DNA of 64,000 nucleotides from an uncultured Candidatus Peribacteria bacterium (GTDB taxonomy: Bacteria > Patescibacteriota > Gracilibacteria > Absconditabacterales > Absconditicoccaceae), in assembly GCA_964387665.1 (NCBI GenBank), contig CAYLWY010000001.1:10075-74074 (forward strand), read 5' to 3'. Position numbers and translations under genes: made by a program. The notes beneath the pieces were generated by a model. It was not told where the DNA came from. It saw nothing but the letters and a program-made list of their open reading frames with translations, and did not search any database. Positions 14,701 to 45,673 of this stretch are shown here, one piece after another. The stretch's first letter is position 1. Each line of letters opens with the position of its first letter.

Positions 14701-16325
14701 CGTTAAAATCTACTTCACTAGAACTAATACGTCAGGCTCAATTGATGTTGTCTTCGTTAGGGATAAGGTCGTACATAACAACCAATAAGCCCTCTACTAT
14801 AAAATGGCACAATGGGACTTATGAAAGTAGGGAATCATATGACTTGAATATCTCTTCGGATAGATCTACTTTTGCGTGGTACATAGGTTTCATTCAGCGA
14901 TATAAGCAAGAAAAACTAGAAGCTTTATGTAAGTCTGTTCGAAATGGGAAGGCCAAGCTCTCTTATGACGTAAACAGTGTGGAATATGTTTCTACCGAAG
15001 AGGTCTTTGACATTACAGTAGACTCAGATGAACATACATACTGGACAGGCGGTGTGTTGGTATCCAACTGCGCGGAGATTATGTTTAACTTCTACCATGA
15101 AATTAAAGATAAAAGCGAGGCGGTATTTCAAAAATGTAACCTAAACGAAATAAACGCAGCGGCCTGTGTCGGACCTGACGGTAAATTCAGTAAGGAAATG
15201 TTTATACTTGCGTGTAAAGACGCGGCCGCTCTAGGAACGTTCCAGGCGGGTTTTACTAGTTTTCCTTACCTAGGTAAACAAACCGAGGCAATCGTCGCAG
15301 GAGAGGCGCTCCTAGGCGTATCTATAACCGGTTGGATGGAAAGACCCGAGCTGTTTGATGCCGATTTATTGCGAGAAGGTGCTGAAGAGATTGTACGTAC
15401 CAATGCGCAAATTGCATCTGTCATCGGTATAAACCCGGCGGCTAGGACTACTTGTGTCAAACCTTCCGGAAACGCTTCGGTTGTGTTGCAGACTACTTCG
15501 GGTATTCACCCGGAACACTCGCCGAGATACTTTAGGGTAATGCAACTTAACAAAGGATCTCAGACCGCCAAGTGGTTAGAGGAGAACTACCCCAGTATGC
15601 TTGAGGAATCTGTGTGGTCGGCAACTAAGGCTGACTATGGAGTATTTGTTCCTGTAGTATCGTCTAGTTCCGCTATTTTCAAAGACTCCCTGTCTGGTGT
15701 AGAGCACTTGAAATTAATCAAACTCGTACAGGAGAACTGGGTGAAGCCTGGGAAAGTTGTAGAAAGATGTTACGATCCTTCTGGGAATCACAATACCAGT
15801 TGTACTGTGTTAATCGATTCGTACGATGAGATTGCGGAGTACATGAAAGAGCATTCAGAGGCCTTCACCGCCGTGTCTTTTTTGGCTAGGTCTGGTGATA
15901 AAGACTACAATCAAGCGCCTTTTACCTCTGTTAAGAACAGTCAAGAATTACTTGACGAATACGGCGATGGGGTTCTGTTTGCCTCCGGGCTTATCGTAGA
16001 CGGTCTGCACTACTTCGACGGTAATCTGTGGAAAGCGTGTGACCACGTAATGAATCGTAACTTACCTTTTGAAGGTAGTAGAGATAAGTGCTTACTTCAA
16101 AAAGACTGGGTTCGCCGGGCTAAGAAGTTTGCTAAGAATTATCTCAAGAACGATCTGACAAAAGCGGTGTATTGCCTAAAAGACGTACACCTTTGGCACA
16201 AGTGGCAAACAGTAAAACGCGAGTTTAAAACTGTCGACTTTAATAAAATATTAACAAAGCCAAACTACACTCTAGTATCTGATTACGCCGCCATGGCTTG
16301 CCACGGTGGTTCTTGTGAAATTTAG
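11781..16325 (+). CDS. nrdJ: ribonucleotide reductase, class II-type (NrdJ-like, monomeric size), interrupted by two inteins
   Basis: The spliced extein reads ...VVNP/CAEIMF, which is the NPC(A/G)EI thiyl-radical motif of class II. The C-terminal redox tail is ACHGGSCEI. The extein is about 749 aa once the two inteins (444 and 321 aa) are removed. No small-subunit gene lies nearby. The start ATG 11781 was chosen because it overlaps the upstream stop. Confidence 0.85.
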   Translation: MSNLLKRCINMNEGKKFLSDLKLYSDYLKWVPEKNRFETWEEACEDVINNTYRKKYPDKRLDTVFDSILDSYKKRLILASQRSLQYRSKQIEAHNGRLYNCCVNYCYSPDAFAKGFYVLLCGEGLGVNLHTKFVSQLPKLKRPVLGTKTFIVEDSIEGWADAANALISSFCDTNPPVPEYQGYGIKFDFSKIRPKGAFISGGFSAPGPDGLIQSLSKIESLLLRETANGTVEFADIVAYDVFMHLSNAVLSGGVRRCLPEGTLVKTTKGSKRIEDIQVGDVISTPKGDKRVVNTFYQGVQSTIKIKHVVGEFECTRNHRMAVFTQKGEWEFKTAGTIEKGDRLVWDSTAWAGEVQKTPMLDLLLTVPASYSRNNGRETTITRYPDSTCEIEGCLNIGTGKTRLGLLCSTHAQRLYRFGDPLLTKGWGKHINLPSTVTEDLAWLVGLVQGDGYVSLMPSNKSELQVAKGVLSIAFHEKDTKSIVRAERIIGEICPDSKVKIRKSKGEKCYKLVVSSKKFAMWLHAFVKQANIPLTVPEFIKKSPPQIRSAYVAGLFDADGCDSMRRSFSLLSSVYDTFLEELIVLCTTLGFCPSLRKVRDAQGVWQPLYSLSIVGYAFKEKAIALLAQYSETFVAENVMAGDLSAIKEDFNSYPNGDTEKGDSFTIPVKVLSLEEGRTVPTYDIEVEDIHQFTANGFVTHNSAMLVMFGKHQTAMVEAKMGNWFVENPQRARSNNSVMLVRGEYTQEEFDALLGSNDGLSDIGFVLVDNIHQVVNPCQPSWATVLTPRGISTIGEIEVGSVIWGGDKWVTVTKKWSTGVKDVNAYTTNAGVFYGTENHKVISGGERVEAKDANSIDISSGPLPRQTALIPSIVMDGIVIGDGSKNTPMGGVEVLLNIGANDGDYFSSEIAPFIGPEKPWRAGLHSVTTSITYDEVPKIHTRTIPERFVTADAATVASFLRGLYSANGSICGNRVTLKSTSLELIRQAQLMLSSLGIRSYITTNKPSTIKWHNGTYESRESYDLNISSDRSTFAWYIGFIQRYKQEKLEALCKSVRNGKAKLSYDVNSVEYVSTEEVFDITVDSDEHTYWTGGVLVSNCAEIMFNFYHEIKDKSEAVFQKCNLNEINAAACVGPDGKFSKEMFILACKDAAALGTFQAGFTSFPYLGKQTEAIVAGEALLGVSITGWMERPELFDADLLREGAEEIVRTNAQIASVIGINPAARTTCVKPSGNASVVLQTTSGIHPEHSPRYFRVMQLNKGSQTAKWLEENYPSMLEESVWSATKADYGVFVPVVSSSSAIFKDSLSGVEHLKLIKLVQENWVKPGKVVERCYDPSGNHNTSCTVLIDSYDEIAEYMKEHSEAFTAVSFLARSGDKDYNQAPFTSVKNSQELLDEYGDGVLFASGLIVDGLHYFDGNLWKACDHVMNRNLPFEGSRDKCLLQKDWVRRAKKFAKNYLKNDLTKAVYCLKDVHLWHKWQTVKREFKTVDFNKILTKPNYTLVSDYAAMACHGGSCEI
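12549..13880 (+). mobile_element. intein 1 (444 aa) with LAGLIDADG homing endonuclease
   Basis: The N-terminal junction reads GGVRR followed by the intein start CLPEGTLV. Block B is TRNH. The LAGLIDADG motifs are LVGLVQGDGYV and VAGLFDADGC. The intein ends in GFVTHN, with SAMLVMF as the downstream extein. An extra Cys/His ribbon is present (CEIEGC...LLCSTHAQRLYRFGDP). Confidence 0.85.
14106..15068 (+). mobile_element. intein 2 (321 aa) with LAGLIDADG homing endonuclease, inserted at the radical Cys codon
   Basis: The N-terminal junction reads VVNP followed by the intein start CQPSWATVLTPRG. Block B is TENH. The LAGLIDADG motifs are MDGIVIGDGS and LRGLYSANGS. The intein ends in GVLVSN, with CAEI as the downstream extein. 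The penultimate residue is Ser rather than His. Confidence 0.8.
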
Positions 16326-19300
16326 AACTCACCTTCGGAGATTCGTTTGGCCATTTCTTCAGAGATTTCTCTGTTAGCCTTACGGATCTCCGATCTGAGT
16401 TTTGCGTCAGTTATTTGTTCATCTCTATTAGAATAGTCTAATAATATTTGACTTATACGTTGCCTAAACAACTTTGTATATTCATTTTTTGCTTCAGCGC
16501 TTAGCTCCAATCCTTTCTTTGGATCTGGTATAACTCTAAGATTTCCAACTCCTCGCAATAGTCTTTCCGAATTTACGTTGTCGAGCTGCTCCGCGGCCGC
16601 AAACGTATCCATGGCGTCGTCGCTGTAATAATAACCAGCACCATGCATAGTTGGTCCAAAGAAGTGCAGCATCCTAGCTATTACAGTAGCAGCGTTAGTA
16701 TCGTCGTCATTGCTTAATTCTACTATGGTTTCTAACCCTGCTGATATAGTCAACGGGGTAAGCGCATCTCTTCCTATGATGAACAGTGCATCTAAGTACG
16801 AATCCCCTATCAATCTTCCTCTGAAATCCCTTCTCGTTGCTAACGTCTTCCCTACGGATACTACCGGGTTTAGCTTACCCTCAAGTACTCGCATACCTAA
16901 TGTCCAGACATTCTGGTCGGCTAGTGGTCCTGTCTTAGTTGGATAAGACGTTCCGCCTATAGTTATATTAGCATTAGTAGCTTCGGCAAATCGATCTAGC
17001 ATTTGTGCCCCAGTACGTAGCCAATAAGCATTACCTGCCATATATTCATAAACCGCAGAGCCGCATCTCAAGCGTAAGAAATCAGACCGTCTGTAGTCTA
17101 GTCCAAGACCTCCCCCACCTTCCTCTTCATCGCATGCTAACTTAAATAAACGATGTAATCCAGCGTGTACCGCTAAGAACACAAGTGTTTGTGCTATTGT
17201 ACCCGCAGTTCGGTGTTGGTGCGCCCTTATTTGGCCCGCATATTTACGGTTCATGGCCTCTTTACCATACAACTCCAACTCTGCTTTTTCTGGTATTAGT
17301 CCATGTATTCGAGCATATGCTTGAGCCATACGTAAAGGTGACGTAACTAAATACATCATACCTTTTATCTGCGCCGCGTAGTATCTGGGGGCCCATAAAA
17401 AAGAAGATACAATCGGACTAACCTTGTGGCCTAAGAAAGTATCTGCCCTACCAGTCCATACGTTAATAGACTCCGCTATTAGTTGCATCTCCTCAACGGT
17501 AACTATGCCATTTTGTAGCTCCGCTGCTTGCTGGTAATAAGCCTTAAACATTGCAAATCGCAAGTGGTTTAGGTAAGTAACGTAGTGGGACTCTGATGCA
17601 TCTTTAATCCTAGATGGTAGGTCCGCCATGCCGGCAAGAATTTTATTCTTATCTCCTGTCCGGGCCCATTTCCCCAAATCATCTAAATAAGAATCCATAA
17701 AGTATTCCTCCGCTAAATCCATACCCTCTTTAGGTACTGTAATAGCTAATTTTGCCATCTTGGCAACTGCGTACATTGGGTCATTTATAATCGACTCGTA
17801 TGCCTCTATTGTTTTGGACTCATCTCGTTTTGTCAATTCGTCGGTAGCTGCAATCCACGATTTTTTATAACCCTCTATGAGGTCTGTGAACGAGAATTGA
17901 TTTTTCATACTACCTCCCATTAGACTATACGCCCCCTGGGCCATTGCGATACGTAAGGCCATGCCACCTTGGTTAGAGAAGGATGACATATCAAACATAG
18001 TCTTAGATACACGAATAGTACTAAGCGTTTTCGTTATAGCGGTTAGTATTTTTCCTCTCGTCGCACGGTTCCCATCCTCTATAGCCCGCCTCAATTCACG
18101 GCGTTTAGCCGCTAATTCTGCTCTGGCTTTGGCTACTTCCGGAGCTTCGTATTTCTTGTCGAGTACGGGGGTTAATCCTAAAATAGCCTTATATTTAGCA
18201 GCAGGGTCTACGCTAGTAGCGGCCTGTTTTAGCGTAGCTAGTTTCGTATCTACATCTGCCATAGCCCGTTGAAGTCTTTCCGACTGTTGGAACGATTGGA
18301 TGTTACGAGCATTCTCAAGTATACGCGCTAATTTATCTTCTGTTATTGGGTAGTCATACCGGAATATATTGGTAAATTCAGATTGAAGTCTATTGATGTT
18401 ATTGATTAACCAAGTAGCTTGTTCTGGGCTATGTTCGAAAGCCGCAGCTTGCGCCATAAGCCTATCGATTATCTGGTTTACTAACACAAACTGCTGTTGA
18501 GACTGTGTTTCCGGATATAATTGAGATGCTTTTACTAGTCGTGCAGACTCTTCCCTATCATTTTTATACTCACGTAGTCTTTTCTGTACGTCTATCGCAA
18601 ATTCCGAAACTATAGAAGATAGCTTAGTAGCTGCTTTAGCCGCGGCGATTGTTTCTTTTTTCCAATCTTCATATGCAGTAATGGACTGGCTTACGTGTTC
18701 GACTGAATCGTAAGCCATGGCTACATACACGTCCATTTCACTAAGTTTGTATCCTATACTATCGTATAGTCTGATAACTTCCCCCACTACCGCATCGGGT
18801 GAGCCCATGGTATCCCGACCTACTATAATCGTTACTTGTTTTACATCGTACAAAAACTGACGCATATCCGGCGTAGTGCTTGTTGTAATAAATAACGGTT
18901 TGGACATAGAAGCATTTGGTTTATGCTTTGTTGCCCATTTGGCTAGAATAGCCTGTGCCGTAGTCGGTGCGGCTTTACCGGTAAAAGATTTCGCAAAAGC
19001 CCGTTCAAAAGCGGACTTAAATTGAAGAAATACCCGCTCGTCTGGGTCGTACTGGAACTTCTCAATTGTAGCCTCTAATTTTCTTATATCATCTATTAGC
19101 TTCTCGGCTTTCTTATGATATTGTTTAGGCGCCGTTGGTTTTAGTGCCGCCATAGCCCGCTGCTCATATGTCTTACCAATTCCCCATCTCCTAAATGCCA
19201 AGGCCCTAGCGTGCCCAGTACCGGACTGTTGTACCGCCATAGATATAGCGTGGTACGCGTCTCTCTCTGCTATATACTGCTTGCTGAATAATTGCCAAGC

Positions 19301-22300
19301 CGTAGCATCTGGGTGCCCTGTTTGGTATATTGCCTTAACATCAGCTTCCATCTTATCTAAGATAATCTCTAACTCTTCTGCCCGGGCCTTGGCTTTTTCA
19401 GCAGTAAACATCATTGCGAATTCTGCTGAAACAGGTACACTATCAATCTCCCCGGAGAATAACCGCTCTGCTGTACGTAGCGAGTGTTCAATATTGTCGA
19501 AGTGATGATCGTGTACTGCCGCAGTTACGACGTCAGCTCCCGTCATACCTATCACTGGATCTCGCTTGTCTAGTTTTAGAACCTTATACGCAAGCTCTAT
19601 ATTTCTCTTGTCAGTGTGTATGGCCACCCCGTCCCCCTCTAACTTGTGCTTCCAGCTTTCTGGGGTTGTGTTTTTTAAATTTTCCCAAGAGGCCCGCTGC
19701 TCGGCGGTGAATAAATCAGGAATAACTCCGTCAAAAACCTCCCGTATGTCGTTGTAGGATAACTCCATATACAACGGGTTCTCTTCAAGAGATGCGACAA
19801 ATTCACGATAAGTTATATTTCCGTTAGTAATTAAACGCCAATGCTCTAGTAGTTTGGCTAGCTCTTCTTTTGTTTTTTGTGTCTCTGCTTTTTGTTTATG
19901 CGCATATATATCTGCTGAATCTGTATAGAGTTTATCTAGTGGTATCCCCTGCCCTTTGATCAGCGCATTAGCTAGTCTAGTTGAGAACATGTCTACCGTC
20001 GATAGGTCGTCGAAGAACCCATCAAACACTTCGTTTTTGTCGAAAAACTTGTTTACCCTAGCCGCAGCGTTGGTTAGGCCTAAAGCAGAAAGCACGTCAT
20101 TGAGGAAATTCTGTAGACGCTCTCTTACAGACTTACGTTGTTTTGGTAGGTTCTGGAATACCTTAGCCATGGTCTCAGTGGCTAAGAGTTGCGTTAAGGC
20201 CTCATTGTCGAGTTCGTCGATTAATGCCGCCGCCTCTTCCGGAGTTTCCGGAGCTACCTGGGCGTATCCTTCCCAAGCAAACCCTGCCCAATATCTTTCG
20301 AATAGTATCGGGTCTGATACCATATTAGATACTAAGTCTTTGTATAGGTTTGGTTGCTTAGCGATTAAGTCGATAAGCATTGGGTGTATAGCTTCGTGCA
20401 ACGCCGTCTCGGCTGTAAAATCCCTAGCACCTGTAAACAAATGAATTTGCCCGTTACCATAAATCCCCTTAGAGTTTACAGCCAAGCTTTGAGTAGTACC
20501 TTCGTAAGTACTGATTTGGGCTATACCGTTGGCATAGCTTTCCACTGTGTCGTGTACAAATATTTGAATTCCAGAGTCTTTAAAGGACTTCTGAATCATT
20601 CCGACCAAGTCGTAGAACTTCTTCATTTCTCCCTTGGCCTTACTTGCTCGTCTACGGATTTCAAATCGACTCAATAGCGCCTTCACTGGAAACGCGTATG
20701 GATTTTCCCTACGTAATACTCTACCGGACATTTCCCGTACCCAAGCACGGTCTGCGTCTGATATTGTGGTATCTTCTTGTGTTGGGAAAGCCTCTGATAA
20801 CAGTTGGTTTAGATATCCTTTCGCCGCCTTTGGGTTGCTGCGTAGGTTGGCTATGATTCTAGCCTGTACAGTAGCTTCAGTTACTCCTTCTGGATATCCG
20901 TCAGGGTATACTTCACTAGGTACTAAAGGTAAGCCCTCTGCTATTTGTTTGTCTACATATGCGTCTATGGTTTCTTTTACACCGGCAGGGATGGAAGCTT
21001 GCGTAGGCGAACTGCCTATAGATGCTTTTGGTATTTCTTCGCCTAGCATCGTAGAATAAATATCGACCATGGTGTCGTTTAACTCCAAGTCGATGTCACT
21101 ACCTGTTACTCCGTTGTATATGTCGGTTAGCCATTGTTTGAAGCTCTCGAACGCCTTTTTCAATTTCGGCGTAGGTGCAATACCATCTGCTAAATATTTC
21201 TCAAATCCTCGGGCAAACTTCTCAGAAGTCTTTACTGTCCACTTTTTGTGCCCAGCCCAATCTAAAATAGCATTACGTTCTGCGTCAGTAAGGTAGTGCT
21301 CATATACGTGAGCTAACTCGTGCATAGGTGTGGAGACATTCGGATCGGTCAGGGCGTATACGATAGCCTGGTTGTCCATTGCTGTCATCATAGCACCCCG
21401 AGCCTGTATTGCATCCTTTTGGAATTTAATTACCTCTTCGATGCTTACGGCATTCTCGTCAAATACAACGTAGTTAAACCCTCTTGCTGTATCTGATGTA
21501 GTTCCACGAGCAACGCTTTCCGCTGGAAACTTTATACCGTCAATGCCATTTTCAAGTAAGAATTTTGATGCAGCTTTATCTGAGCCTAATTCTTCTGATA
21601 TACTTTCATATATAGATTGTCCAGAATTTACAGATTTATCTAAATAAGATTCTGCTTCTTCTTTAGTTCTAAAAAGACCTCCTAAATTACCGCCTCTATT
21701 ACTATTTATAACATACCCCCTAAAAGTGCCCCCGTAACCAAAAGATTCTTCTACATCATAGTCGCTCTTATTTACTACACTTAATTCTGGGAGTACTTTT
21801 TTTATTTTGTTTATTATACTATATGGAGTAGATTTATCCCACTCCAACCAAGTGTATTGGTCGGGTGTTTTTCCTTTGTGAAGGGATACTTTGTATAGAT
21901 TTCTACTTATATCTACACTTATATTGTTATTATTTATAAAATCTAATGCTTTTTTATAAACCTCCCTGCCACTTCTAACATAAGCACCCTCTAAATAATC
22001 TATAGATATTCTTTTATTATATTTATCTTTAATACCAACTCCTATGGCGTGTTGGATATGAGCTTGCACTACAATATCAATATCTGACGGGTATTTGTAA
22101 TCTTTTTTATCAATGCCGTTTATTTCTACAACGGGGGTTGATAACTTTTCTGCATAGTACCTCGCAATATTCTCTAAGTCCGTAAAATACAATCCCCATC
22201 CAAAAGCCTGTGCGCCCTCTCCAGTGCCGATGTTTTCAGTTGAAAATTTATCAACCTGATGCGGGCTGCCGTGCCAGGCGTCTATTTGAAACTTAACCCC

Positions 22301-25300
22301 TTCTGGAATGTTGGTGTTTTCTTGAAATAGTACCTCGTTGGTAAGCATGCTTCTTAATCTCCCTTCTGAGAGTACCGCATAAACCCCCTTTCCGTAATCG
22401 ATTACATCATAGCCTTCGCGTTTTATCTTATCGTGTAGTTCTTTTTGTAGCCTACCATAATTAGGTTTTGAGTTTAGAAATTTAAAATCTTCCGACGTAA
22501 TTTTATACGCTTTTCCTAATTCTAATTTCATGGGGATAACTCGAGAGGCCGTATTAATTTCTGCGAATTTACCAGTTACGTGGTCGTAGTCCCCAAATTT
22601 CATACTGTCGTTTTCCGTCGCATAATTAGATGCCTCTTGCGGTGAAACCGTAACAAATACCCCCTTACCGGTATCTCTAAACTTTTTGAAATCCTTATCC
22701 TTAGAAGTGCCATGATACACATCTAGTATTGTCTCAATGTCTTGTAACTTGACTCCTTTAGGTAAGCCCTCCATGGTAGACTTCTCGTAAGCAATCCTTT
22801 GGTACATCTCGTCCTTAGTAATGCCGGCGCGTTTTGCCATGGTCGTAACTAACGCGTCACCTACTGCCGCAGCTGCTTTAGCTTGCTCGTTGTTTAGGCC
22901 GAAAATCTGAGACATTACCTGCAACAAGCCTTTGATATTTCGAGGCTTAGTCTGCACTTTAGCGCCAATTTCTTCGGCAATGGCCGTTTTTTGAGCTTCT
23001 GAAACTGGTTTAGTGGTCGGTTTGGCCACTTCTTTGGCCGTTTCAGTAGTAGCCTTGGCCGGTTTGCTCGTTAAGTTGGCTGCGCGTTCTACTATTTGCT
23101 TACGCTTACCGGTAGGTGCCTTGCCGTCTTTATCCCGAAACTTACCGGTTTCTGGGTCATATGTATAAGTAATGTTATTACGCTGTGCGTCTCTTACGGT
23201 TACTACTTTCTTTCTAGGTACAATGGGCTCTGCCGCAGGTTTAGTTTCTGTTGTAGCCTCGGGCTTCTTAGGAGGCTCTTTAGCTAGCGCCGCGTTTATC
23301 TGTCTCACCCGTATCCCGGGAGCGTTTTTTCCATCGGGGGCTTCCCACTTTTCAGAAGTCTCATTATAGGTGTATGTAACCGCCCCCTTACCCTTAACGT
23401 TAATCGTTGCCGTCGTTTTTGCCGGTTTTTTCTTTGGAGTGTACGCCAACAATTCCTCAATCAACGCGTCCGCATATTGCTTACTAGCCATACCTTGGGC
23501 TTTTTGATCCCAAAGTATATCTTTTCCTATACCAATCTGAATATTTTGTTTATCTAACTCGCTATATACTTTATCTAAAGTCCACTTCTGTTTTTGGCCC
23601 TTTTCCATAATATCCCTAAAGGCCTTCATCTTCTCCGTACGGGCATCTCCTAGATATTGCATTCCCTCACTATCGTCGGCTCGCTTCTTAGAGATTACAA
23701 TACCAAGACGTTTCTTACGTCTCTGCTTTTTATTTCCATCCCCCTCTTCTACTTCTTCCTCTAAAAGACCTCTATTACCCGCGCGCAACAGTCCTGGTAT
23801 CATTACCAAATCTTCAAACGCGTCTAGGTCTTTCGGGATTGGTACCGCCTTTATTTTGGGAATACCGGCCTTATCTCCCAACTGTTCTCTAATAGTTTTA
23901 TTTGGATCTAGCTTTTCCCCAAACCGTTTCAATGACTCTTGTGGGAGTTCCCCAGGTTTTTTATCTAATGCGTCTATCCGCCACGCCTCATAGGTGGCTA
24001 CGTCAGATACGAACGTAGATGTCCCAAGCTTCCACGCTTCTGGATCAACTTCGCGTTTTGTCGTCTTAGCCAGCTCCTCGTACTGTGGGGCTGCCTCTGC
24101 TGGGGCGGCTTCCGGTGTAGCTGTTAAAGTCTCGGGAGCTTTCGTCTCAGGAGATTCTTCCTCAGTATCTACTTTAGGTAGTTTTGGATTGACAATCTCG
24201 GCTAGTTGGTTATCTATTTTCTGGATTTCAAGTTCCAGCGGTTCTAGTATTTGCTTAGACGCGCCGGTTTCTTTTAACGCTCCGTGTTTGTCTATGAGGG
24301 CACCACGCATCATTAGAGCCTGAGTGGCTTTGGCGAGGTCCTTGTCGGACACTTCCATGGCTTTGAGCGCCGAGGAAATCTCTGCAATCTTCTGTCCCTT
24401 AGTAGCCGCTAGTTCCGGATCGATTGCTGCTACTCCTTCTAAATAAGACTCTACAAGTTTTGGATTCTTTAAAACTGTCTGAATAGCGTCGTACGTTAAG
24501 CCCGTCTTGCTATATGCCCCAATGTTGGGTACGCTACCACCAATAGCACCTACGATACCACTAACGAGTAGCGTCTCTGAAATCGCAAGTGGATCTATTC
24601 TAAACTCATCTCCATACACTAAGGCATTATAACCACGTTCTAAAATGTGGTCTTGTACGGTTTCTTCAACCATCTCGCCGGCAGTCGAGCGTATTGTAGA
24701 TTTACCTAACTCCATCAGCGTATCGGTCCACGTCGCCTTGCCTAGGCTATATCGCTGCATAGCCTTAGTTAAAGTACTGGCGGGTACGCCTCCCATCATG
24801 CGAGCGGCCCATTTACCTTCAATAGGGTTAATTAAGCTGGTACCACCAATCATCATTCCCTTGGCGAACTTGTCTAACCAAACTTCACCTCCGGTACGCC
24901 CGGCTTCTAAGGAAGTTTGTACCGCTGCGTCTTGGGTTCTTAAATAACCGGCGCTTACAGTACCAATAGCAGAGGCTATTTTAGTACTAGCTCCAAGGCC
25001 CTTAGCTATTCCACCAACTTTCCGCGTTACTACGGCATCGAAAACTAAATCCCCCAAAACGTCAGCTACAATACTTAAAGTCCCGCTTTTGCTGAATTCT
25101 GTTTGTAGCTCGGCCGTTTGTGCTCGAGTAGAGTCTTCATCAGTTGGTGTATAGTCTTTTAATATATTTCCATCAGCGTCTCTAGCGCCTATTATTTGGC
25201 GGCTTTCTGGGTCTACTATTACGCGATTTCCATTATCGTCCATAAAATAATGAGACCAAGCCTGCGCCATATCATTCGGTCCGGAGGTAACTCGCCGAGC

Positions 25301-26536
25301 TATGACATCGTCAGCGTGCTTGTTTAACCAATCCCACTCCGCGGCTTGTGCTACGTTTTTAAAACCACGTCCAAGTATAGCCATTGTATAATCCAATGGG
25401 CGACCCACTGCTCCCAATACTGGAAAATCTTCTCGAAGTTTCTCCTGCTTAGCCATTAACTCTTCATGCTCGATTAATCGCTGGGCTTCGTTTGGGTTTT
25501 GTTTGATAAGCGCTAATTGCGCGTGACGGGCGTTGTTGAGTCCTCGGATTGCTCCAAGCGCCTTCTTTATAGCTGGATGCTCTAGTTTTCCTTTATTAAC
25601 CCTTTCGTAAGTTTCTAAATCTTTACGACCGGTTGGGGATAGTTGGGCAACAAGTACCATATTTTGGTACTCCTTTAATACTTTATCATATTCCCCGGTA
25701 CCGTTTTCTTGGTCATACTCCTCCTGAGCTTTGGCTATATTCTTCCAAGCGGCTTGTTCGTAGTTCTGCACGGCCTCCGACCCGACTCTAATACGACCTC
25801 GCTCGACTAACTCTGGATTTGAATCGTATATTTTCATACGATCGTCGTAGTTAGTCATCTGCCGTATACCCCAACCAATTGGGTCTTCATCACCCGTAAT
25901 CTCGGGAATGTCAGCTCCTTTTAAACTGCGTTGCTTTGCAGCTTGTTCTTCTACTATATCTTCCGCAGTGGCCATTGCTAGTCCACCAACGGGATTAATA
26001 GCCGCTTTCCAATAACGACGTATAGTCTTAGTGACCTCCTCGAACATTCCAGGCTCTTCCTCCTTGGGGGCCTCTGGTTTAGGTTCCGGTGCCTTCTCCT
26101 TTGCCGCAGGTTCTTGACCCTTCTTAAACATCTCCTCAAAAGCACCGTAACTAACATCAATAGCATCTGGCATCTCTTTCGAGATATCGTCATACACTTT
26201 CCCCAAATCCCCAGAATCCATCCAAGCTTTTGTAAGCTCTGCGTCAGATACGGATCCCATAAACTGCGGGTTCGCCTTCTTGATATTTTTGGCCAAGGTA
26301 GCTAGCTTGCCGGGATCTAGTGGGGCTTTTTCGGGGGCTCTACCCATGGCCTGCTGCAAGAACTGGTCACGGGGCATGTCTACCATATCTGGATGCTTAG
26401 CCTGCAACGTGTCGTAAAAAGACGTCGCGAACCGTTGGTCTTGCATATCAGCCGCCAATTGCTCCGCCGTCTTTTCCGGATATAAAGATGGATCAAGTTG
26501 TTTGATCTGTTTTAATGCTTCAGTTATGTTACTCAT
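16322..26536 (-). CDS. giant multidomain virion/ejection protein (3404 aa), polyvalent-type
   Basis: The ORF is uninterrupted over 10.2 kb. Residues about 1265-1720 hold two paralogous HG[ST]...GxYF/V modules. HExxH motifs lie at about aa 1739 (HELAH) and 2047 (HEAIH). Hydrophobic segments occur near the C terminus. It is the last gene of the late block. Confidence 0.85.
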   Translation of the reverse strand: MSNITEALKQIKQLDPSLYPEKTAEQLAADMQDQRFATSFYDTLQAKHPDMVDMPRDQFLQQAMGRAPEKAPLDPGKLATLAKNIKKANPQFMGSVSDAELTKAWMDSGDLGKVYDDISKEMPDAIDVSYGAFEEMFKKGQEPAAKEKAPEPKPEAPKEEEPGMFEEVTKTIRRYWKAAINPVGGLAMATAEDIVEEQAAKQRSLKGADIPEITGDEDPIGWGIRQMTNYDDRMKIYDSNPELVERGRIRVGSEAVQNYEQAAWKNIAKAQEEYDQENGTGEYDKVLKEYQNMVLVAQLSPTGRKDLETYERVNKGKLEHPAIKKALGAIRGLNNARHAQLALIKQNPNEAQRLIEHEELMAKQEKLREDFPVLGAVGRPLDYTMAILGRGFKNVAQAAEWDWLNKHADDVIARRVTSGPNDMAQAWSHYFMDDNGNRVIVDPESRQIIGARDADGNILKDYTPTDEDSTRAQTAELQTEFSKSGTLSIVADVLGDLVFDAVVTRKVGGIAKGLGASTKIASAIGTVSAGYLRTQDAAVQTSLEAGRTGGEVWLDKFAKGMMIGGTSLINPIEGKWAARMMGGVPASTLTKAMQRYSLGKATWTDTLMELGKSTIRSTAGEMVEETVQDHILERGYNALVYGDEFRIDPLAISETLLVSGIVGAIGGSVPNIGAYSKTGLTYDAIQTVLKNPKLVESYLEGVAAIDPELAATKGQKIAEISSALKAMEVSDKDLAKATQALMMRGALIDKHGALKETGASKQILEPLELEIQKIDNQLAEIVNPKLPKVDTEEESPETKAPETLTATPEAAPAEAAPQYEELAKTTKREVDPEAWKLGTSTFVSDVATYEAWRIDALDKKPGELPQESLKRFGEKLDPNKTIREQLGDKAGIPKIKAVPIPKDLDAFEDLVMIPGLLRAGNRGLLEEEVEEGDGNKKQRRKKRLGIVISKKRADDSEGMQYLGDARTEKMKAFRDIMEKGQKQKWTLDKVYSELDKQNIQIGIGKDILWDQKAQGMASKQYADALIEELLAYTPKKKPAKTTATINVKGKGAVTYTYNETSEKWEAPDGKNAPGIRVRQINAALAKEPPKKPEATTETKPAAEPIVPRKKVVTVRDAQRNNITYTYDPETGKFRDKDGKAPTGKRKQIVERAANLTSKPAKATTETAKEVAKPTTKPVSEAQKTAIAEEIGAKVQTKPRNIKGLLQVMSQIFGLNNEQAKAAAAVGDALVTTMAKRAGITKDEMYQRIAYEKSTMEGLPKGVKLQDIETILDVYHGTSKDKDFKKFRDTGKGVFVTVSPQEASNYATENDSMKFGDYDHVTGKFAEINTASRVIPMKLELGKAYKITSEDFKFLNSKPNYGRLQKELHDKIKREGYDVIDYGKGVYAVLSEGRLRSMLTNEVLFQENTNIPEGVKFQIDAWHGSPHQVDKFSTENIGTGEGAQAFGWGLYFTDLENIARYYAEKLSTPVVEINGIDKKDYKYPSDIDIVVQAHIQHAIGVGIKDKYNKRISIDYLEGAYVRSGREVYKKALDFINNNNISVDISRNLYKVSLHKGKTPDQYTWLEWDKSTPYSIINKIKKVLPELSVVNKSDYDVEESFGYGGTFRGYVINSNRGGNLGGLFRTKEEAESYLDKSVNSGQSIYESISEELGSDKAASKFLLENGIDGIKFPAESVARGTTSDTARGFNYVVFDENAVSIEEVIKFQKDAIQARGAMMTAMDNQAIVYALTDPNVSTPMHELAHVYEHYLTDAERNAILDWAGHKKWTVKTSEKFARGFEKYLADGIAPTPKLKKAFESFKQWLTDIYNGVTGSDIDLELNDTMVDIYSTMLGEEIPKASIGSSPTQASIPAGVKETIDAYVDKQIAEGLPLVPSEVYPDGYPEGVTEATVQARIIANLRSNPKAAKGYLNQLLSEAFPTQEDTTISDADRAWVREMSGRVLRRENPYAFPVKALLSRFEIRRRASKAKGEMKKFYDLVGMIQKSFKDSGIQIFVHDTVESYANGIAQISTYEGTTQSLAVNSKGIYGNGQIHLFTGARDFTAETALHEAIHPMLIDLIAKQPNLYKDLVSNMVSDPILFERYWAGFAWEGYAQVAPETPEEAAALIDELDNEALTQLLATETMAKVFQNLPKQRKSVRERLQNFLNDVLSALGLTNAAARVNKFFDKNEVFDGFFDDLSTVDMFSTRLANALIKGQGIPLDKLYTDSADIYAHKQKAETQKTKEELAKLLEHWRLITNGNITYREFVASLEENPLYMELSYNDIREVFDGVIPDLFTAEQRASWENLKNTTPESWKHKLEGDGVAIHTDKRNIELAYKVLKLDKRDPVIGMTGADVVTAAVHDHHFDNIEHSLRTAERLFSGEIDSVPVSAEFAMMFTAEKAKARAEELEIILDKMEADVKAIYQTGHPDATAWQLFSKQYIAERDAYHAISMAVQQSGTGHARALAFRRWGIGKTYEQRAMAALKPTAPKQYHKKAEKLIDDIRKLEATIEKFQYDPDERVFLQFKSAFERAFAKSFTGKAAPTTAQAILAKWATKHKPNASMSKPLFITTSTTPDMRQFLYDVKQVTIIVGRDTMGSPDAVVGEVIRLYDSIGYKLSEMDVYVAMAYDSVEHVSQSITAYEDWKKETIAAAKAATKLSSIVSEFAIDVQKRLREYKNDREESARLVKASQLYPETQSQQQFVLVNQIIDRLMAQAAAFEHSPEQATWLINNINRLQSEFTNIFRYDYPITEDKLARILENARNIQSFQQSERLQRAMADVDTKLATLKQAATSVDPAAKYKAILGLTPVLDKKYEAPEVAKARAELAAKRRELRRAIEDGNRATRGKILTAITKTLSTIRVSKTMFDMSSFSNQGGMALRIAMAQGAYSLMGGSMKNQFSFTDLIEGYKKSWIAATDELTKRDESKTIEAYESIINDPMYAVAKMAKLAITVPKEGMDLAEEYFMDSYLDDLGKWARTGDKNKILAGMADLPSRIKDASESHYVTYLNHLRFAMFKAYYQQAAELQNGIVTVEEMQLIAESINVWTGRADTFLGHKVSPIVSSFLWAPRYYAAQIKGMMYLVTSPLRMAQAYARIHGLIPEKAELELYGKEAMNRKYAGQIRAHQHRTAGTIAQTLVFLAVHAGLHRLFKLACDEEEGGGGLGLDYRRSDFLRLRCGSAVYEYMAGNAYWLRTGAQMLDRFAEATNANITIGGTSYPTKTGPLADQNVWTLGMRVLEGKLNPVVSVGKTLATRRDFRGRLIGDSYLDALFIIGRDALTPLTISAGLETIVELSNDDDTNAATVIARMLHFFGPTMHGAGYYYSDDAMDTFAAAEQLDNVNSERLLRGVGNLRVIPDPKKGLELSAEAKNEYTKLFRQRISQILLDYSNRDEQITDAKLRSEIRKANREISEEMAKRISEGEF
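21380..22744 (-). other. two tandem PARP/ART-like (H-Y-E type) modules inside the 3404-aa protein
   Basis: Module 1 reads LDVYHGTSKDKDFKKF...GVFVTVSPQEASNYA...GYDVIDYGKGVYAVLSEG. Module 2 reads IDAWHGSPHQVDKF...GEGAQAFGWGLYFTDLENIARYYA...GIDGIKF...NYVVFDEN. Boundaries are approximate. Confidence 0.5.
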
Positions 26537-26537
26537 G

Positions 26538-29165
26538 CTAGCTATTCTGTAGTTCCTTTAACCCACGATCTATTAAAGCGGCTTCTTTTTTACCGCGTTC
26601 TCCAACCGAGTCCTTTTGAACAAGTTCTTTTACTTTCTGCCAATTCTTACTTTTAAGTGCGGCTCCGTACTTGTTTGGGAAACCCGTACTACCTTTTTGG
26701 TAATACTGAGACAAAAGTACGGTTTTTAATGCTACTGGAAGTGTATCAAATTCAATTCCGTATTCTTTTACCTGAGCTCTAACCCCCCTTAGATTAGCCA
26801 ACTGCATAGAGCCCGTAAGGAACTTCGCTTCAGTGGGAGAGATTCTAAGAGGATTCTTCTTTAAGAACGCTACCGCGGCCCCTTTTTTCAGGCCCAAATA
26901 CGGTCTTAACTTCTCGATAAGATAAGGTGGTATGCCCGCTCTTTTAAGTTCTGCTACGCCTTGCCCGCCTAAATCTACTCCTCCACCAATGGTTACACCA
27001 CTGTTAAGTAACGCTTTACCTTCTTTCATTGGAACGTGGCCCTTACCGTTTTCCTTATCACCTTCTACCAAGGTCATGAAGTCTAAGTCTAAGTGCTTTT
27101 TTATAGTACTTTCTATTTTGCTGTAAGCCGTCTCTAGCGTCTGCTTCCTATTTAAAGTAGCTTTCCCAGTGCTGTTTAACCGGTGTAGCGCGTGATTCGT
27201 GTACTTCTTTTTGGCGTTATTCGCCTCGAGAATTTTGGGACCTTGATTAAAATCACTTACCCAAGCCTCGCCAGTCCACGTTTGCATATGTCCATTACCT
27301 CCACCGCCGGCAGATGCTACAATATCCCCAACTTGCCATTGTGATGGATCAGACAGGTAATTGTCTGGTAAAGCTGTTTTTGGGTTATATCCTTTAGACG
27401 CTTGGAAGTCAGCCTTACCGGTTGTGGAAAAATCGTCGGCATTTCCACCGATGTTTTGGGTGGTTGTAAACCAATCCAAACCAGTCATTGCTCCTACGAA
27501 ACACTTAACACCCCGTCCACAAGCGCCCACAGAAGACTTGGCTCCTTTTTCTAAATTAGCCGCAGTTTTCTTACCTAGCGCATCTGTTCCCGCATACGTA
27601 GCAGCTTCTTTAGTCAATCTATCTACTGAAATAGTAGGAGAAGATGTGGTGGTTTCAGTGTTAGTTGTAGTTTCCGTTGCTGGTTGAGTGGCTTCCCCAG
27701 ACATTATCGAAGATAGTGTTATTGGTTTAGTAGCCCCGGGTTGTGCCGCACCGGTCGCTGTTTGAGTCGTTGGTGCAGGGCCTGACATTACCGTTTTAGC
27801 TAACGCATGGACTTCACTCCAGCCTTGTCTAATTGATGCCTCGTCTTCAGACCCAAGAAGGCTTGCTAGCCCGGCCCGCATAGGCGCGTAAGTAGTTTCC
27901 CCAAAGTCCGCCGTAATAAAAGCATCGGCGTCTCGCGCGGCTACCTGTCCTAAAAAGTCTTCATAAGTACCTGTAAAACCATTTTCAGCATTAACCGAGG
28001 CCGTGTATAACGCCCGTAACCTATTACCACGTCTCCAAGCCTCTTTATCTATCGCCGTGTGTACGTCTTTTATTACCTCTTTAGAAGTTTTATTTGCAGT
28101 ATCTTTTTTAGCATTTGCTAATTGTGACAATATTTCACCTACTAAGGCAGTGCTTGCTGGATCTTCTAAGTCTACTCCTTGATTAGTGCCATAGATAAAG
28201 AAGTTATCAAACAGTGCAGCATCTACATCCTTAAGCCCACGTCGGCTAGCTGGAGTTCCGCCTTGAGCGTCTATGCGAAGTCCTGCCGAATTTAGTCCGG
28301 TTTTATTGCTTGGTAAGTTCTTTATACCAACAATCTGTTTAGTTTCTTGATTATAGGCACTAAGGATATCTTGAGTGTATTTTACCCCAGACTCTGTTAG
28401 TTCCCCGCTTTGTGGGTCGAGGTAACCCTTAGCAATCATATTGTTTCGGAACTTAGGGTCTTGCATACGCTCCGCCAAAATACTATCCAATGCCTCTTGG
28501 CTACGTTTTTGTATCTGCTCTTCGTACGAAACAGTATTGTTTTGAATTAGTTCAGACGTAGAGATTTGTGGTATCTTAGAAAACCGATCCATCAAATCCG
28601 CCGTTATATCTAAATCTTTATACGCATCTCCATTTATCTCTAATCCAGTTTTTTCACCATTCTGGTAAGCCCGGACTTGGTCAAAAAACATTTCTTGTAA
28701 TTTAGGATCTGCTGGAGGGTCTTTTACATACGCATTTAAGGTAGAATCAAAGACCGCCTGTTCGCGTATGACGTTCCTAATAGCCCCATCTGATACGAAC
28801 GCCGAAGTAGCTTTTGCGACATTCCCCATTGTATATGGGTTTTTCAATTGCTCGGCGCTCATATTAAACATGTCCTCAGAAATTCCAATACGTTGCTTGG
28901 TTTCTTCAATCACTTGTTGCTGGTTGACATTGTCATATCTGACTTTAGTTATCGCGTCATAAGCAGACGCCAACCCCGCCATATTATCTTGCGCTACTTT
29001 ACGATCCTGTTCTTGGATTTTAGTATACGTATCCAGGGCAGAAGTCAGCGGCGTAAGGCTGACTTCGGGTAAATCTAATGTAGGGGCATATGATACATTT
29101 GGTACACCTAAACCGGTATTAACGTCATGTATTACTGATCCTCCTCTTTGGTATCGCTTTGTCAT
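26538..29165 (-). CDS. internal virion/ejection protein (875 aa) with CHAP/NlpC-like and lysozyme-like domains
   Basis: A Cys...His pair (VGACGRGVKCF ... GNGHMQTW) lies at about aa 549-630. The C-terminal stretch GVTIGGGVDLGGQG resembles GH24/pesticin-type muramidase motifs. Confidence 0.75.
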   Translation of the reverse strand: MTKRYQRGGSVIHDVNTGLGVPNVSYAPTLDLPEVSLTPLTSALDTYTKIQEQDRKVAQDNMAGLASAYDAITKVRYDNVNQQQVIEETKQRIGISEDMFNMSAEQLKNPYTMGNVAKATSAFVSDGAIRNVIREQAVFDSTLNAYVKDPPADPKLQEMFFDQVRAYQNGEKTGLEINGDAYKDLDITADLMDRFSKIPQISTSELIQNNTVSYEEQIQKRSQEALDSILAERMQDPKFRNNMIAKGYLDPQSGELTESGVKYTQDILSAYNQETKQIVGIKNLPSNKTGLNSAGLRIDAQGGTPASRRGLKDVDAALFDNFFIYGTNQGVDLEDPASTALVGEILSQLANAKKDTANKTSKEVIKDVHTAIDKEAWRRGNRLRALYTASVNAENGFTGTYEDFLGQVAARDADAFITADFGETTYAPMRAGLASLLGSEDEASIRQGWSEVHALAKTVMSGPAPTTQTATGAAQPGATKPITLSSIMSGEATQPATETTTNTETTTSSPTISVDRLTKEAATYAGTDALGKKTAANLEKGAKSSVGACGRGVKCFVGAMTGLDWFTTTQNIGGNADDFSTTGKADFQASKGYNPKTALPDNYLSDPSQWQVGDIVASAGGGGNGHMQTWTGEAWVSDFNQGPKILEANNAKKKYTNHALHRLNSTGKATLNRKQTLETAYSKIESTIKKHLDLDFMTLVEGDKENGKGHVPMKEGKALLNSGVTIGGGVDLGGQGVAELKRAGIPPYLIEKLRPYLGLKKGAAVAFLKKNPLRISPTEAKFLTGSMQLANLRGVRAQVKEYGIEFDTLPVALKTVLLSQYYQKGSTGFPNKYGAALKSKNWQKVKELVQKDSVGERGKKEAALIDRGLKELQNS

Positions 29166-31611: not shown

Positions 31612-33749
31612 TTCCGCTTCTTTGATAAAGCTCCCTTCTTACGTAAGGGAGGTCTGTTTTGTTTCCCAATTCGAGCTAGGTAAATTTGGCTCGGGTCTAT
31701 TTTATCTCCAAACATTTCGGTACGATCTCCAACTCCTTTCGTAGCTTTTTGAGTACTTCTGTATTTTATTCCTACTACGTTTTTATCGTCGTCATATACC
31801 CAATCTTTAAATATTACTGAATGACCAGAGCCATTCTTTCGCCAGATTTGCGCAATGTCGCCGGGTTTTGCGCTTTCGTGGGGTACTTCGTATCCGAGGC
31901 CATACTTCTGCAAAGCCGCAGTTGAAAGCGATTCTTTGTCCCCTTTCTTATAGTCTTTAGCTCCGTACCATATCTGTTTAAAGTCGGCTAGTTGCTTGTC
32001 GTCTAGGTCTTTTAGTAAGCCTGAATCTTGCATTGCTTTTAAAGATACGCCACAGGTATACCCGGAACAGTAAGTTCCTTCGGCTTGCTTGGCTAGTATC
32101 TTAGCGCTGTTGTGTTCTATGTCATATGGAGATCCACTTCCGGAAGGGTCCCAATTGTAACCGCCGCCTTCTAGGGAATCCGCTAATTGTAAAATAGCGG
32201 CGTTATAATCCGGCTCAGATTCGCGATTCACAAAATCAGGTATTGTAAATATTCCTTTTTGGGATTTTTGTACACCCCCGCCTTGTTGGAAAAATTTATT
32301 AGATAATCTATTAAAAGCCTGTCCATCTACTACTTTAATAGCGTCACGTACTTTAGCTCCTCTATCACCTAATATGGGAGTTATGCTATTATGGCCTACT
32401 TGGAGATACCCATCTTCGAACAACGAGCCAGAGGGGACCTTGTTTATATCAAAATCAGGGAAATGCCTATTGTAATTCTTTTTAGCTTGGGATGTAGTCC
32501 TCATCCTTAGTACCTTATTGATAAGCCCTTCGGGCATTTGATCTTTATAGACCTTTACATAGTAAGGATTTTCTCCTCCATATCTAGGTCCTAGCCAAGT
32601 AGGGTCATTTGAATAATATAGAATATCTTTGTTGGTACCTTTAACTAATTCTTCATGCCCACCTGACCTTCTACCTCTATTAAAAACATTGTTAGGGGCT
32701 ACTGTAGTGCCCATATACTTAGCCACATCGTAGGGATCATCTGGGTTTAATCCAGCCGAAGCTATGTTCTGCCTTATTATAGGATCTCGCATTAAATCAG
32801 GGTTAACGTCTACTACTCTATATAAAGGCTTAGTGTTATATTGTTGATCTAGCCATTTATCAAAACCTGCGGGATTATCAGGTATAGATCCCACTAACCC
32901 TTGGCTTTGTAATTTTTTAGCTAAGGCATGGGCTTCTTGTACGTCCGCCGACGTCGCTCCATCAGAAGTCCTTCTTACTATCCGAGCCCAATCGTCAGAG
33001 GGATCAGGTGCGCTTTTGAATTTAATAGGGAACCCACTTGCGGCTACGTTGTGATCTAGCGCCCATTGCATCCCTGGGCTATTACTAGGACTTGTAGGTA
33101 TTTTTTTAGCTAAATCTTTTATTTTACGCGCCGCTAACGACTTGCCTATACCCCTTAGTCCCGCCCCCACGATAGCTGGATCTAGCATGTCTAGGGCAAA
33201 ACCAGGCACGCCACCTACTCCAGTAACTTCTGACATGGTACGCTGACCTCCAGGATAAGTAGTTCCTTGGCCATACAGGGGATTAAATAAATCATAAGGA
33301 CGGCCTTTAAGCGCTTCGTAGCCTTCCGCCAATAATGAGTTACCTATTTGAAAAGGATCAAGAGGTAATAAATCAGTAGGGCTTTCTATCTTTCCGGAAC
33401 CTCTTTTAAGTTTGTCTTCTAGTACCATTCGGGCAGGGCCAGCAAGCTCCGATCCCCAAGGATTTGTTTTTAGACCTTCTAGCGCTTTGTTAAAGTCGCC
33501 GCCGTAATTCTCTTTAGCCCAATGTACTAGCTGTGGTTCCCAAGCTGCGCGTTGATCGTCGGTGAGTGTTGTACCCCCATGTTGCTTCTTTACAGGTACG
33601 ACTTTCTGATATACGTCAGGGTGTGCGTCCTTGAGGTAGGCTAGTGCTGTATGCCGGGCTTTTGTCTTGGACATGCCCTGGGATACGTAGTAAGGAATTA
33701 ACTCAGTATTTAAGTATTCCTTAAGATGTGCTACTCGACTATCTGCCAT
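31608..33749 (-). CDS. internal virion protein (713 aa) with C-terminal NlpC/P60- or CHAP-like cysteine peptidase domain
   Basis: The candidate Cys/His catalytic pair is EGTYCSGYTCG (Cys about aa 561) ... NGSGHSVIFKDW. Confidence 0.7.
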   Translation of the reverse strand: MADSRVAHLKEYLNTELIPYYVSQGMSKTKARHTALAYLKDAHPDVYQKVVPVKKQHGGTTLTDDQRAAWEPQLVHWAKENYGGDFNKALEGLKTNPWGSELAGPARMVLEDKLKRGSGKIESPTDLLPLDPFQIGNSLLAEGYEALKGRPYDLFNPLYGQGTTYPGGQRTMSEVTGVGGVPGFALDMLDPAIVGAGLRGIGKSLAARKIKDLAKKIPTSPSNSPGMQWALDHNVAASGFPIKFKSAPDPSDDWARIVRRTSDGATSADVQEAHALAKKLQSQGLVGSIPDNPAGFDKWLDQQYNTKPLYRVVDVNPDLMRDPIIRQNIASAGLNPDDPYDVAKYMGTTVAPNNVFNRGRRSGGHEELVKGTNKDILYYSNDPTWLGPRYGGENPYYVKVYKDQMPEGLINKVLRMRTTSQAKKNYNRHFPDFDINKVPSGSLFEDGYLQVGHNSITPILGDRGAKVRDAIKVVDGQAFNRLSNKFFQQGGGVQKSQKGIFTIPDFVNRESEPDYNAAILQLADSLEGGGYNWDPSGSGSPYDIEHNSAKILAKQAEGTYCSGYTCGVSLKAMQDSGLLKDLDDKQLADFKQIWYGAKDYKKGDKESLSTAALQKYGLGYEVPHESAKPGDIAQIWRKNGSGHSVIFKDWVYDDDKNVVGIKYRSTQKATKGVGDRTEMFGDKIDPSQIYLARIGKQNRPPLRKKGALSKKRK

Positions 33750-45657: not shown

Positions 45658-45673
45658 ATTTTTGGTGTTGTTG

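Follow-up and report, generated by a model that had tools for sequence, protein, structure and literature searches.

The giant gene and its modules

We analysed a 64,000-nucleotide (nt) stretch of DNA, referred to below as the window, which covers positions 10,075 to 74,074 of contig CAYLWY010000001.1 in the GenBank assembly GCA_964387665.1 of an uncultured Candidatus Peribacteria bacterium. The source element is a crassvirus-like podophage, and our subject is the giant open reading frame (ORF) at 16322..26536 on the minus strand, which starts with ATG, encodes 3,404 amino acids (aa) and closes the late (structural/cargo) operon. An earlier reading made from the letters alone (the sequence-only reading) had proposed a single ORF here, and its coordinates are exact. 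Two metagenomic orthologues, P0002 (3,578 aa) and P0003 (2,654 aa), are colinear with the 3,404-aa protein from the first to the last residue, and thus the ORF is real and intact rather than a chance or frameshifted frame. Its ATG lies 1 nt past the stop of the upstream 875-aa ORF, and its stop overlaps that of a convergent ribonucleotide reductase (RNR) gene. The overlap is TTAG at 16322-16325, leaving no intergenic room for a terminator between the two transcription units.

We partitioned the protein with local BLAST, HMMER and domain hidden Markov models (HMMs). It is a three-part mosaic in which a conserved N-terminal module and a C-terminal arm flank a fixed payload slot. The N-terminal module (aa 1-1090; 23267..26536; all features of the gene are on the minus strand) shares 36-37% identity with P0002 and P0003 and has an invariant GDEDPIGWGIR motif at aa 215-225 as well as amphipathic segments rich in Gly/Ala at aa 484-530 and aa 647-675. 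By Kyte-Doolittle hydropathy, aa 484-505 and aa 647-675 are more hydrophobic than any C-terminal segment. The core of this module (aa 460-730) is also found near the N-terminus of giant proteins of 5.8-7.5 thousand aa (kaa). The N-terminal region had been described as acidic, Lys-rich and of low complexity; such a tract is present but short, an acidic/Lys/Pro-rich linker at aa 129-173 (26018..26152) found by an entropy scan, and the 1,090-aa module itself is conserved and not of low complexity. The same scan identified further linkers at aa 783-834, 1080-1117 and 1152-1190. A duplicated module, also proposed earlier, was located by local alignment at aa 1053-1074 (VTYTYNETSEKWEAPDGKNAPG; 23315..23380) and aa 1122-1143 (ITYTYDPETGKFRDKDGKAPTG; 23108..23173), the two copies aligning with a score of 82 against 29.8 +/- 5.6 in 2,000 shuffles. 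Orthologues have one copy of this repeat, and the linker zone that carries the duplication spans aa 1030-1200.

The payload of the 3,404-aa protein (~870 aa) consists of a helical adaptor, two ADP-ribosyltransferase (ART) modules and a first HExxH module. The adaptor (aa 1160-1262; 22751..23059) stands at the payload start, is common to P0004-P0010, has no Pfam match and is modelled as helices with pLDDT ~75-80. ART1 (aa ~1264-1415; 22299..22754), which carries His 1275 within VYHGT and is present or absent between strains, was identified as Pfam ART-PolyVal (PF18760) over aa 1271-1397 with an E-value of 2.7e-10 and 41.6 bits against a cut-off of 31.2. The second module, ART2 (aa 1412-1700; 21437..22303), is common to ~45 giant proteins and shows a weak DUF3990 match at its N-terminus (aa 1421-1466, E 7e-4). 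Iterating a search from ART1 recovers ART2 at E 4e-10, and a profile-profile comparison with hhalign gives a probability of 99.9%, a figure that is partly circular since the ART1 profile had already absorbed ART2-type sequences. On the basis of the iterated search and the profile match, we assign ART2 as an ART-PolyVal-type domain split by an insert of ~180 aa, so that both ART-like modules of the sequence-only reading stand, ART1 above the Pfam cut-off and ART2 by way of ART1. The conserved residues of ART2 are H1422, GEG (1439-1441), GWG (1446-1448), Y1450 and NYVVFDE (1688-1694), and H1422, GEG, GWG and Y1450 are kept in 17-20 of ~20 homologues. In the AlphaFold2 (AF2) model, H1422 falls in strand 1 and Y1450 in strand 2, which are consecutive. 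This placement fits the family description, which for the ART-PolyVal / Tox-ART-HYD2 clade names a His in strand 1, a Tyr in strand 2 and, for strand 5, an acidic residue (PMC5512222).

We found exactly two HExxH motifs in the protein, H1739-H1743 and H2047-H2051, where 0.055 would be expected by chance. The first closes the payload as the HExxH-1 module (aa 1705-1847; 20996..21424), with H1739, E1740 and H1743 followed by EKFARGFEKY (E1772, E1779). This domain is common to ~25 homologues, its HExxH is conserved in 26 of 28 sequences, and a conserved E..A..FE.Y helix follows ~30 residues past the motif. Its model (pLDDT 90-97) shows strands and then a helix that bears the HExxH. Zincin-like metallopeptidases have their HExxH in a helix behind a small beta-sheet and take a third ligand from a Glu of the next helix. 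The pattern appears zincin-like, judging from the conserved motifs and the predicted secondary structure; HExxH-1 matched nothing in Pfam or in the PDB by sequence or fold. The HExxH-2 module (aa 1960-2210; 19907..20659) belongs to the C-terminal arm and has conserved H1995, H2047, E2048, H2051, P2052 and Y2091. We collected 21 homologous segments of HExxH-2, each located upstream of the C-terminal domain, and H2047, E2048 and H2051 are present in all 21. The two modules align with each other only locally, at 26% probability. Hence, of the two zincin-type motifs that had been proposed, both are present and conserved in homologues, and it is the zincin fold that lacks a Pfam or PDB match. As to their positions, MHELAHVYEH lies at 21296-21325, about 10 nt from where it had been placed, and ALHEAIHPM at 20378-20404.

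We also observed that the sole HExxH of gp47 of the crassvirus ΦcrAss001 (residue 2157 of 2,341; aa 2140-2212) aligns with the HExxH-1 family, including the downstream E..AEGF, in a weak match from a single-sequence search (13 bits, E 3e-6). This hints that crassvirus cargo proteins associated with RNA polymerase may carry the same small HExxH-1-type domain.

The C-terminal arm continues with a middle helical region (aa 2211-2674; 18515..19906) that is conserved only in the close orthologues P0002, P0003 and P0057-59, and it ends in a 730-aa C-terminal domain (aa 2675-3404; 16325..18514) delimited with a profile of the last 1,200 aa. The motifs of this domain are NQGG (2855), ..RxxMF.., TGR (3028-3030), WAPRYY (3048) and DF.RLRCG (3152). 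Searching 1.84 billion representative proteins with the 1,200-aa profile returned 975 matches at E<=1e-3, nearly all of which have the domain at or near the C-terminus of proteins of ~300 to 7,500 aa. The domain has no match in Pfam or PHROGs, and among GenBank phages a single match was found, a 1,582-aa protein encoded just past the tail genes of a 43-kb podophage-like genome. An AF2 model built from 50 sequences is confident and mainly helical (pLDDT 79.6, pTM 0.77) and has no fold match in the PDB (best E 0.098, TM < 0.25), and it has eleven matches in BFVD at E<1e-3. Those with names bear the labels ‘Large polyvalent protein associated domain-containing protein’ or ‘Phage MuF C-terminal domain-containing protein’. 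Comparison of the domain with the C-terminal ends of proteins in the polyvalent groups P0006, P0011 and P0018 using jackhmmer and hhalign was negative. The hydrophobic character ascribed earlier to this end of the protein is weakly true and was overstated, as no 19-residue Kyte-Doolittle window reaches a typical transmembrane score (best 1.32, at aa 3113-3136).

The domain combination had been thought to be unlike that of any characterised protein, and our searches bear this out. PDB sequence searches with the whole protein and with the three-orthologue, central and C-terminal-domain profiles gave only noise or coiled-coil matches. No match to GenBank phages was obtained by megablast of the gene or by tblastn of the C-terminal 1,492 aa, and tblastn of aa 1-3000 against the same phages matched only aa 1264-1891. 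The PADLOC and NCBIfam libraries contained no match, and an IMG/VR search with the three-orthologue alignment found no relative. No polyvalent-protein model of Pfam matches the N-terminal module, HExxH-2 or the C-terminal domain. Searches by region, which the sequence-only reading had suggested as a check, thus place ART1 in Pfam ART-PolyVal and leave the central and C-terminal models without a significant PDB fold match.

Payload exchange among relatives and natural strains

The N-terminal core, HExxH-2 and the C-terminal domain occur together and in this order in 15 proteins of 2.6-7.5 kaa, namely P0001-3, P0057-59, P0061 and eight giants of 5.8-7.5 kaa. We measured the payload as the stretch between the N-terminal module and HExxH-2. 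Against the ~870 aa of the 3,404-aa protein, P0003 has ~190 aa and essentially no payload, P0002 has ~1,120 aa made up of repeats and HExxH-1, and P0058 has ~1,475 aa that include DUF7178. In the giants the payload reaches ~3,500-5,100 aa; that of P0073 carries LPD5, LPD1, a ResIII helicase and an NPPFG methylase motif recognised by eye. ART-PolyVal, Kinase-PolyVal, ddrB-ParB, AHH nuclease or LPD37 occur in other proteins that have the C-terminal domain at their end. The payload also occurs on other arms, since P0004 has the same adaptor, ART2 and HExxH-1 (53% identity) on unrelated ones. More broadly, the central modules recur in 50+ giant metagenomic proteins together with ART-PolyVal, LPD38, LPD1/5, Kinase-PolyVal, ddrB-ParB and SNF2/methylase.

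The phage sequence is present in activated-sludge metagenomes of several studies, and we compared contigs of eight metagenome runs (X1-X8) along the giant gene. Over the arms, the adaptor and HExxH-1, the strain found in X4-X8 shows 95-99% identity. Contigs of X4, X5 and X7 join position 22298 to 22755, skipping 456 nt at a 7-nt (GVK) microhomology. The deletion is in frame and removes aa 1264-1415, which is exactly ART1, so that ‘...GLPKGVK’ is fused to ‘FQIDAWHGSPH...’, the same arrangement as in P0004. Runs X4-X8 also share an 18-nt insertion behind 23257, between the two repeat-module copies, which duplicates a PPKKPE linker unit. In addition, X4-X8 contain no sequence at least 80% alike over ~21548-22212, with a common breakpoint at 21547 in X4, X7 and X8, and this unalignable stretch is the ART2 insert. 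The loss of ART1 and the replacement of the ART2 insert indicate that the payload changes fastest, by gain, loss and replacement of modules, and it is the fast-evolving, exchangeable part of the protein both between species and between natural strains. Such payload turnover is what one would expect of effectors engaged in an arms race.

A separate observation concerns the region at 22184-22280 of the window, which encodes the conserved ART2 start GEGAQAFGWGLYF. Short contigs of runs X1-X3 match ~40-100 nt there and then diverge, at depths of 6.5-54x, with four of the seven pieces above the 10.6-17.1x of the phage. These diverging contigs indicate that other abundant elements in those samples carry the same ART motif.

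Taking relatives and strains together, we tentatively propose, with a little less than even confidence, that the N-terminal module, HExxH-2 and the C-terminal domain constitute a widespread and previously undefined protein-delivery chassis of crass-like and other podophages. This chassis would have a single payload slot for effectors of ~0.2 to ~4.5 kaa, with modules moving between chassis and being gained or lost within natural populations.

The phage and its late operon

The tail genes of the window are of the crassvirus type. A 2,160-aa muzzle protein and the 335-aa tail ring protein 1, encoded within 35072..42561 on the minus strand, match Pfam crAss_MUZ (PF25731, E 3e-16) and CrAss_Ring_1 (PF24228, E 1.4e-21), respectively, and these two genes set the tail type and mark where the cargo block begins. 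In a direct comparison with ΦcrAss001, the capsid, ring and muzzle proteins of the window were homologous to gp32, gp40, gp43 and gp44, the ring protein matching gp43 and the muzzle protein gp44. The structural backbone is also common to Flavobacterium phage FpV4. The same structural operon includes the major head protein (60593-62149, minus) and a collagen-like tail fibre (46837-48450, minus).

Downstream of the muzzle gene are ORFs of 120, 344, 713, 812 and 875 aa, followed by the 3,404-aa ORF. The contigs L002, which encodes P0002, and L003, which encodes P0003, have the same gene order as the window, and the P0004 gene is also downstream of crass ring and muzzle genes; the late-operon layout is repeated in four related contigs. 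The 812- and 713-aa ORFs (29173..33749, minus) have no family match and, by synteny with L002 and L003, are in a candidate cargo/ejection position. The 875-aa ORF (26538..29165, minus) has a C-terminal muramidase domain of the pesticin/T4-lysozyme-like type (PF16754, E 3e-28) and likely encodes an ejected cell-wall hydrolase. In ΦcrAss001, mass spectrometry detected the post-muzzle products gp45, gp46, gp47, gp49 and gp50 in virions, and they were described as ejected cargo (PMC10172136). FpV4 has a 4,287-aa ‘virion structural protein’ at the corresponding position; its gp30-gp32 have no sequence similarity to the four cargo-block ORFs, so the correspondence is positional only. Synteny with ΦcrAss001, L002 and L003 therefore supports a place for the giant gene at the end of a putative ejection set, where the sequence-only reading had put it.

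We also noted several features of the neighbouring genes. The C-terminal hydrolase of the ORF upstream of the giant gene is swapped between relatives, being a muramidase in the window and Peptidase_M15_3 in L002 (7678-9999) and L003 (3878-6235). The 344-aa ORF (33731-34765, minus) weakly resembles ΦcrAss001 gp45 (aa 71-110 against aa 121-159, E 5e-3 in a 10-sequence search), in an N-terminal region of gp45 around a predicted transmembrane helix. Within the muzzle protein (35072-41554, minus), aa ~610-690 resemble thioredoxin/redoxin (E 1.3e-3 by phmmer against the PDB; E 1e-4 for Pfam Redoxin, which is below the cut-off), and such an insert is unusual in a gatekeeper protein of the tail tip. 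The structural module also contains, on the minus strand, an exonuclease-like ORF (phrog_284, 44365-45723), a methyltransferase-like ORF (phrog_6636, 48447-49682) and a 1,258-aa Cys-rich ORF (51509-55285) that matches nothing in PHROGs or Pfam. At the place matching the exonuclease-like ORF, FpV4 has an ‘exonuclease’. The convergent RNR ORF (11676-16325, plus) encodes 1,549 aa, with an HNH-endonuclease match at aa 472-563 and intein-like spurious matches. The orthologous RNR is 830 aa long in L002 and 1,135 aa long in L003, where it includes a LAGLIDADG domain; BLAST of the window RNR against the L002 RNR returned no match. Because of its greater length and the HNH match, the window RNR probably carries one or two inteins.

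Proposed role and relation to known systems

We consider it probable that the 3,404-aa protein is a polyvalent-type virion cargo protein of a crassvirus-like podophage, built on a plan like that of N4 gp50 and injected to reprogram or disarm the host. Its assignment to the polyvalent class, first suggested by the sequence-only reading, is sustained by the ART-PolyVal domain, by modules that recur in polyvalent giants and by the BFVD matches of the C-terminal domain. The order of events that we propose follows by analogy with N4 gp50. The protein would be synthesised late, along with the products of the tail, muzzle and remaining cargo genes, and loaded into the capsid via its C-terminal arm. 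At infection it would be extruded partly unfolded and N-terminus first through portal, tail and muzzle, either before the DNA or with it and alongside the upstream cargo ORF products, including the lysozyme-bearing protein. The N-terminal module, with its amphipathic Gly-rich helices, may aid passage through the envelope. Inside the host, the ARTs would use NAD+ to ADP-ribosylate components of transcription or translation, defence proteins or possibly nucleic acids, and one or both HExxH domains might process the polyprotein into functional parts or target host proteins.

Several points weigh against this interpretation. We infer packaging, injection, enzyme activity and disarming of the host. 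An HMM search found no similarity to N4 gp50, and similarity to ΦcrAss001 gp45-gp50 is limited to the 13-bit match between HExxH-1 and gp47. Hydropathy identified no convincing transmembrane helix in the protein. The alignments did not settle which acidic residue of either ART is catalytic (D1377 is a candidate in ART1, D1692 or E1693 in ART2), and the HExxH-2 alignment has no evident third zinc ligand. ART1 was modelled poorly (pLDDT 26-60), and a PDB fold search with the central model gave nothing significant, the top match being the catalytic domain of diphtheria toxin at E ~1; this search was probably hurt by a multi-domain query with long inserts.

Alternatively, the protein might be a multi-enzyme that is made late and never packaged, acting in the producing cell by modifying host or phage proteins during assembly or by excluding competing phages. 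Packaging of the 3,404-aa protein is, after all, something we infer, and the T4 ADP-ribosyltransferases ModA and ModB do act within the infected cell (PMC5512222). We nevertheless regard this alternative as unlikely. In three related phages, and in a fourth whose arms are different, the giant gene stands at the end of the structural operon in translational coupling with the cargo/lysozyme ORFs, and wherever the context is readable, the C-terminal domain ends proteins that are encoded beside tail genes. Moreover, a purely cytoplasmic enzyme does not readily account for conserved non-enzymatic arms of ~2,500 aa.

Those arms could instead point to a mainly structural role, with the protein as an ejectosome or conduit component similar to T7 gp15/gp16 or a tape measure, and with ART and HExxH as decayed, non-catalytic remnants. 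The protein is mostly helical, its N-terminal module contains amphipathic stretches rich in Gly, and BFVD gave weak, non-significant tape-measure matches. P0003 keeps both arms with almost no payload, which implies that the arms have a role of their own. The catalytic-type residues, however, are conserved across distant homologues, and the payloads of relatives are recognisable enzymes, namely helicase, kinase, nuclease and ARTs. ART modules that are quickly gained, lost and replaced between strains are likewise typical of effectors in conflict and not of scaffolds, and we therefore think a mainly structural protein quite improbable. A divergent virion RNA polymerase, related to N4 gp50 or to the RNA-polymerase-associated cargo of crassviruses, is the weakest candidate and very improbable, for despite a gene position and size like those of N4 gp50 and ΦcrAss001 gp47 and gp50 and the weak match of HExxH-1 to the sole HExxH region of gp47, there is no polymerase match in Pfam or the PDB and no two-barrel polymerase motif (DxDxD) in the giant ORF or the three upstream ORFs, the family HMMs score negative on N4 gp50, and the payload slot is occupied by ART domains.

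To our knowledge, polyvalent proteins have been defined almost wholly by computation, and few have been followed experimentally. This locus makes the idea testable, as constant arms can be set against a payload slot and natural variants exist with and without ART1. The crass-like phage setting is also convenient, since cargo proteins there can be studied within an existing cryo-EM and proteomics framework. Naming the C-terminal domain would improve the annotation of the “dark” giant genes of environmental podophages. Should the chassis model be true, the chassis would be a natural programmable system for injecting proteins into Bacteroidota-type hosts, and it would hint at how phages swap counter-defence enzymes and how foreign proteins might enter virions.

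Several known systems resemble the 3,404-aa protein in part. The ejectosome proteins of podoviruses (T7 gp14-gp16 and P22 gp7/gp16/gp20) share with it the post-tail gene position and the association with a peptidoglycan hydrolase, here the 875-aa neighbour, but have no PDB sequence or fold match to it. T4 Alt and P1 DarB are head-packed enzymes that are injected with the DNA, which is the mode of action we propose here, and both are without the arms of the 3,404-aa protein. T4 Alt is a small ART of the R-S-E clade (PMC5512222), as opposed to the predicted H-Y-D-clade ARTs here, whereas P1 DarB is a methylase-helicase, and a helicase payload is found on the present chassis in P0073. The giant proteins gp45-gp50 of ΦcrAss001 (Bayfield et al. 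2023, PMC10172136) are similarly large, predicted to be mainly helical and encoded by post-muzzle genes, but they are associated with RNA polymerase, whereas the 3,404-aa protein carries ARTs and no polymerase motif.

The closest parallel in design is N4 gp50, in which injection involves the N-terminal ~1,000 aa, the enzyme occupies the middle, and encapsidation requires the C-terminal 1,400 aa, where there is an HExxH domain (PMC5512222). Both proteins are 3,400-3,500 aa long, are encoded by the last late-operon gene, convergent with replication genes, and follow a plan of N-arm, payload and C-arm. In both, a single C-arm HExxH lies ~60-64% along the protein (residue 2228 of 3,500 in N4 gp50). 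They differ in payload, a T7-like polymerase in N4 gp50 and two ARTs here, and in the tail, which is of the Schitoviridae type in N4 and of the crassvirus type here. The two resemble each other in design only, without detectable homology.

Polyvalent proteins with ARTs and HExxH domains in the late operons of podophages were described in 2017 (Iyer et al. 2017, PMC5512222). Such phage-type proteins, for example the ART-bearing virion RNA polymerase of Roseovarius Plymouth podovirus 1, are likewise giant late-operon proteins that join unrelated enzymatic domains, and they are encoded beside late or virion genes, as is the 3,404-aa ORF. Further hallmarks found here are ART-PolyVal domains, predicted to fall in the H-Y-D clade, and HExxH, together with homologues that carry LPD38, LPD1, LPD5, LPD37, Kinase-PolyVal, ddrB-ParB and helicase/methylase. 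The polyvalent families differ from the 3,404-aa protein in that its C-terminal domain is linked to them by predicted fold only. The kind of protein is thus already known. What is new is that crass-like phages have such a protein as their last cargo gene, that a specific chassis with one payload slot is delineated, that the C-terminal domain is abundant and unannotated and has no solved fold, and that metagenomes directly show ART modules to be gained or lost between strains.

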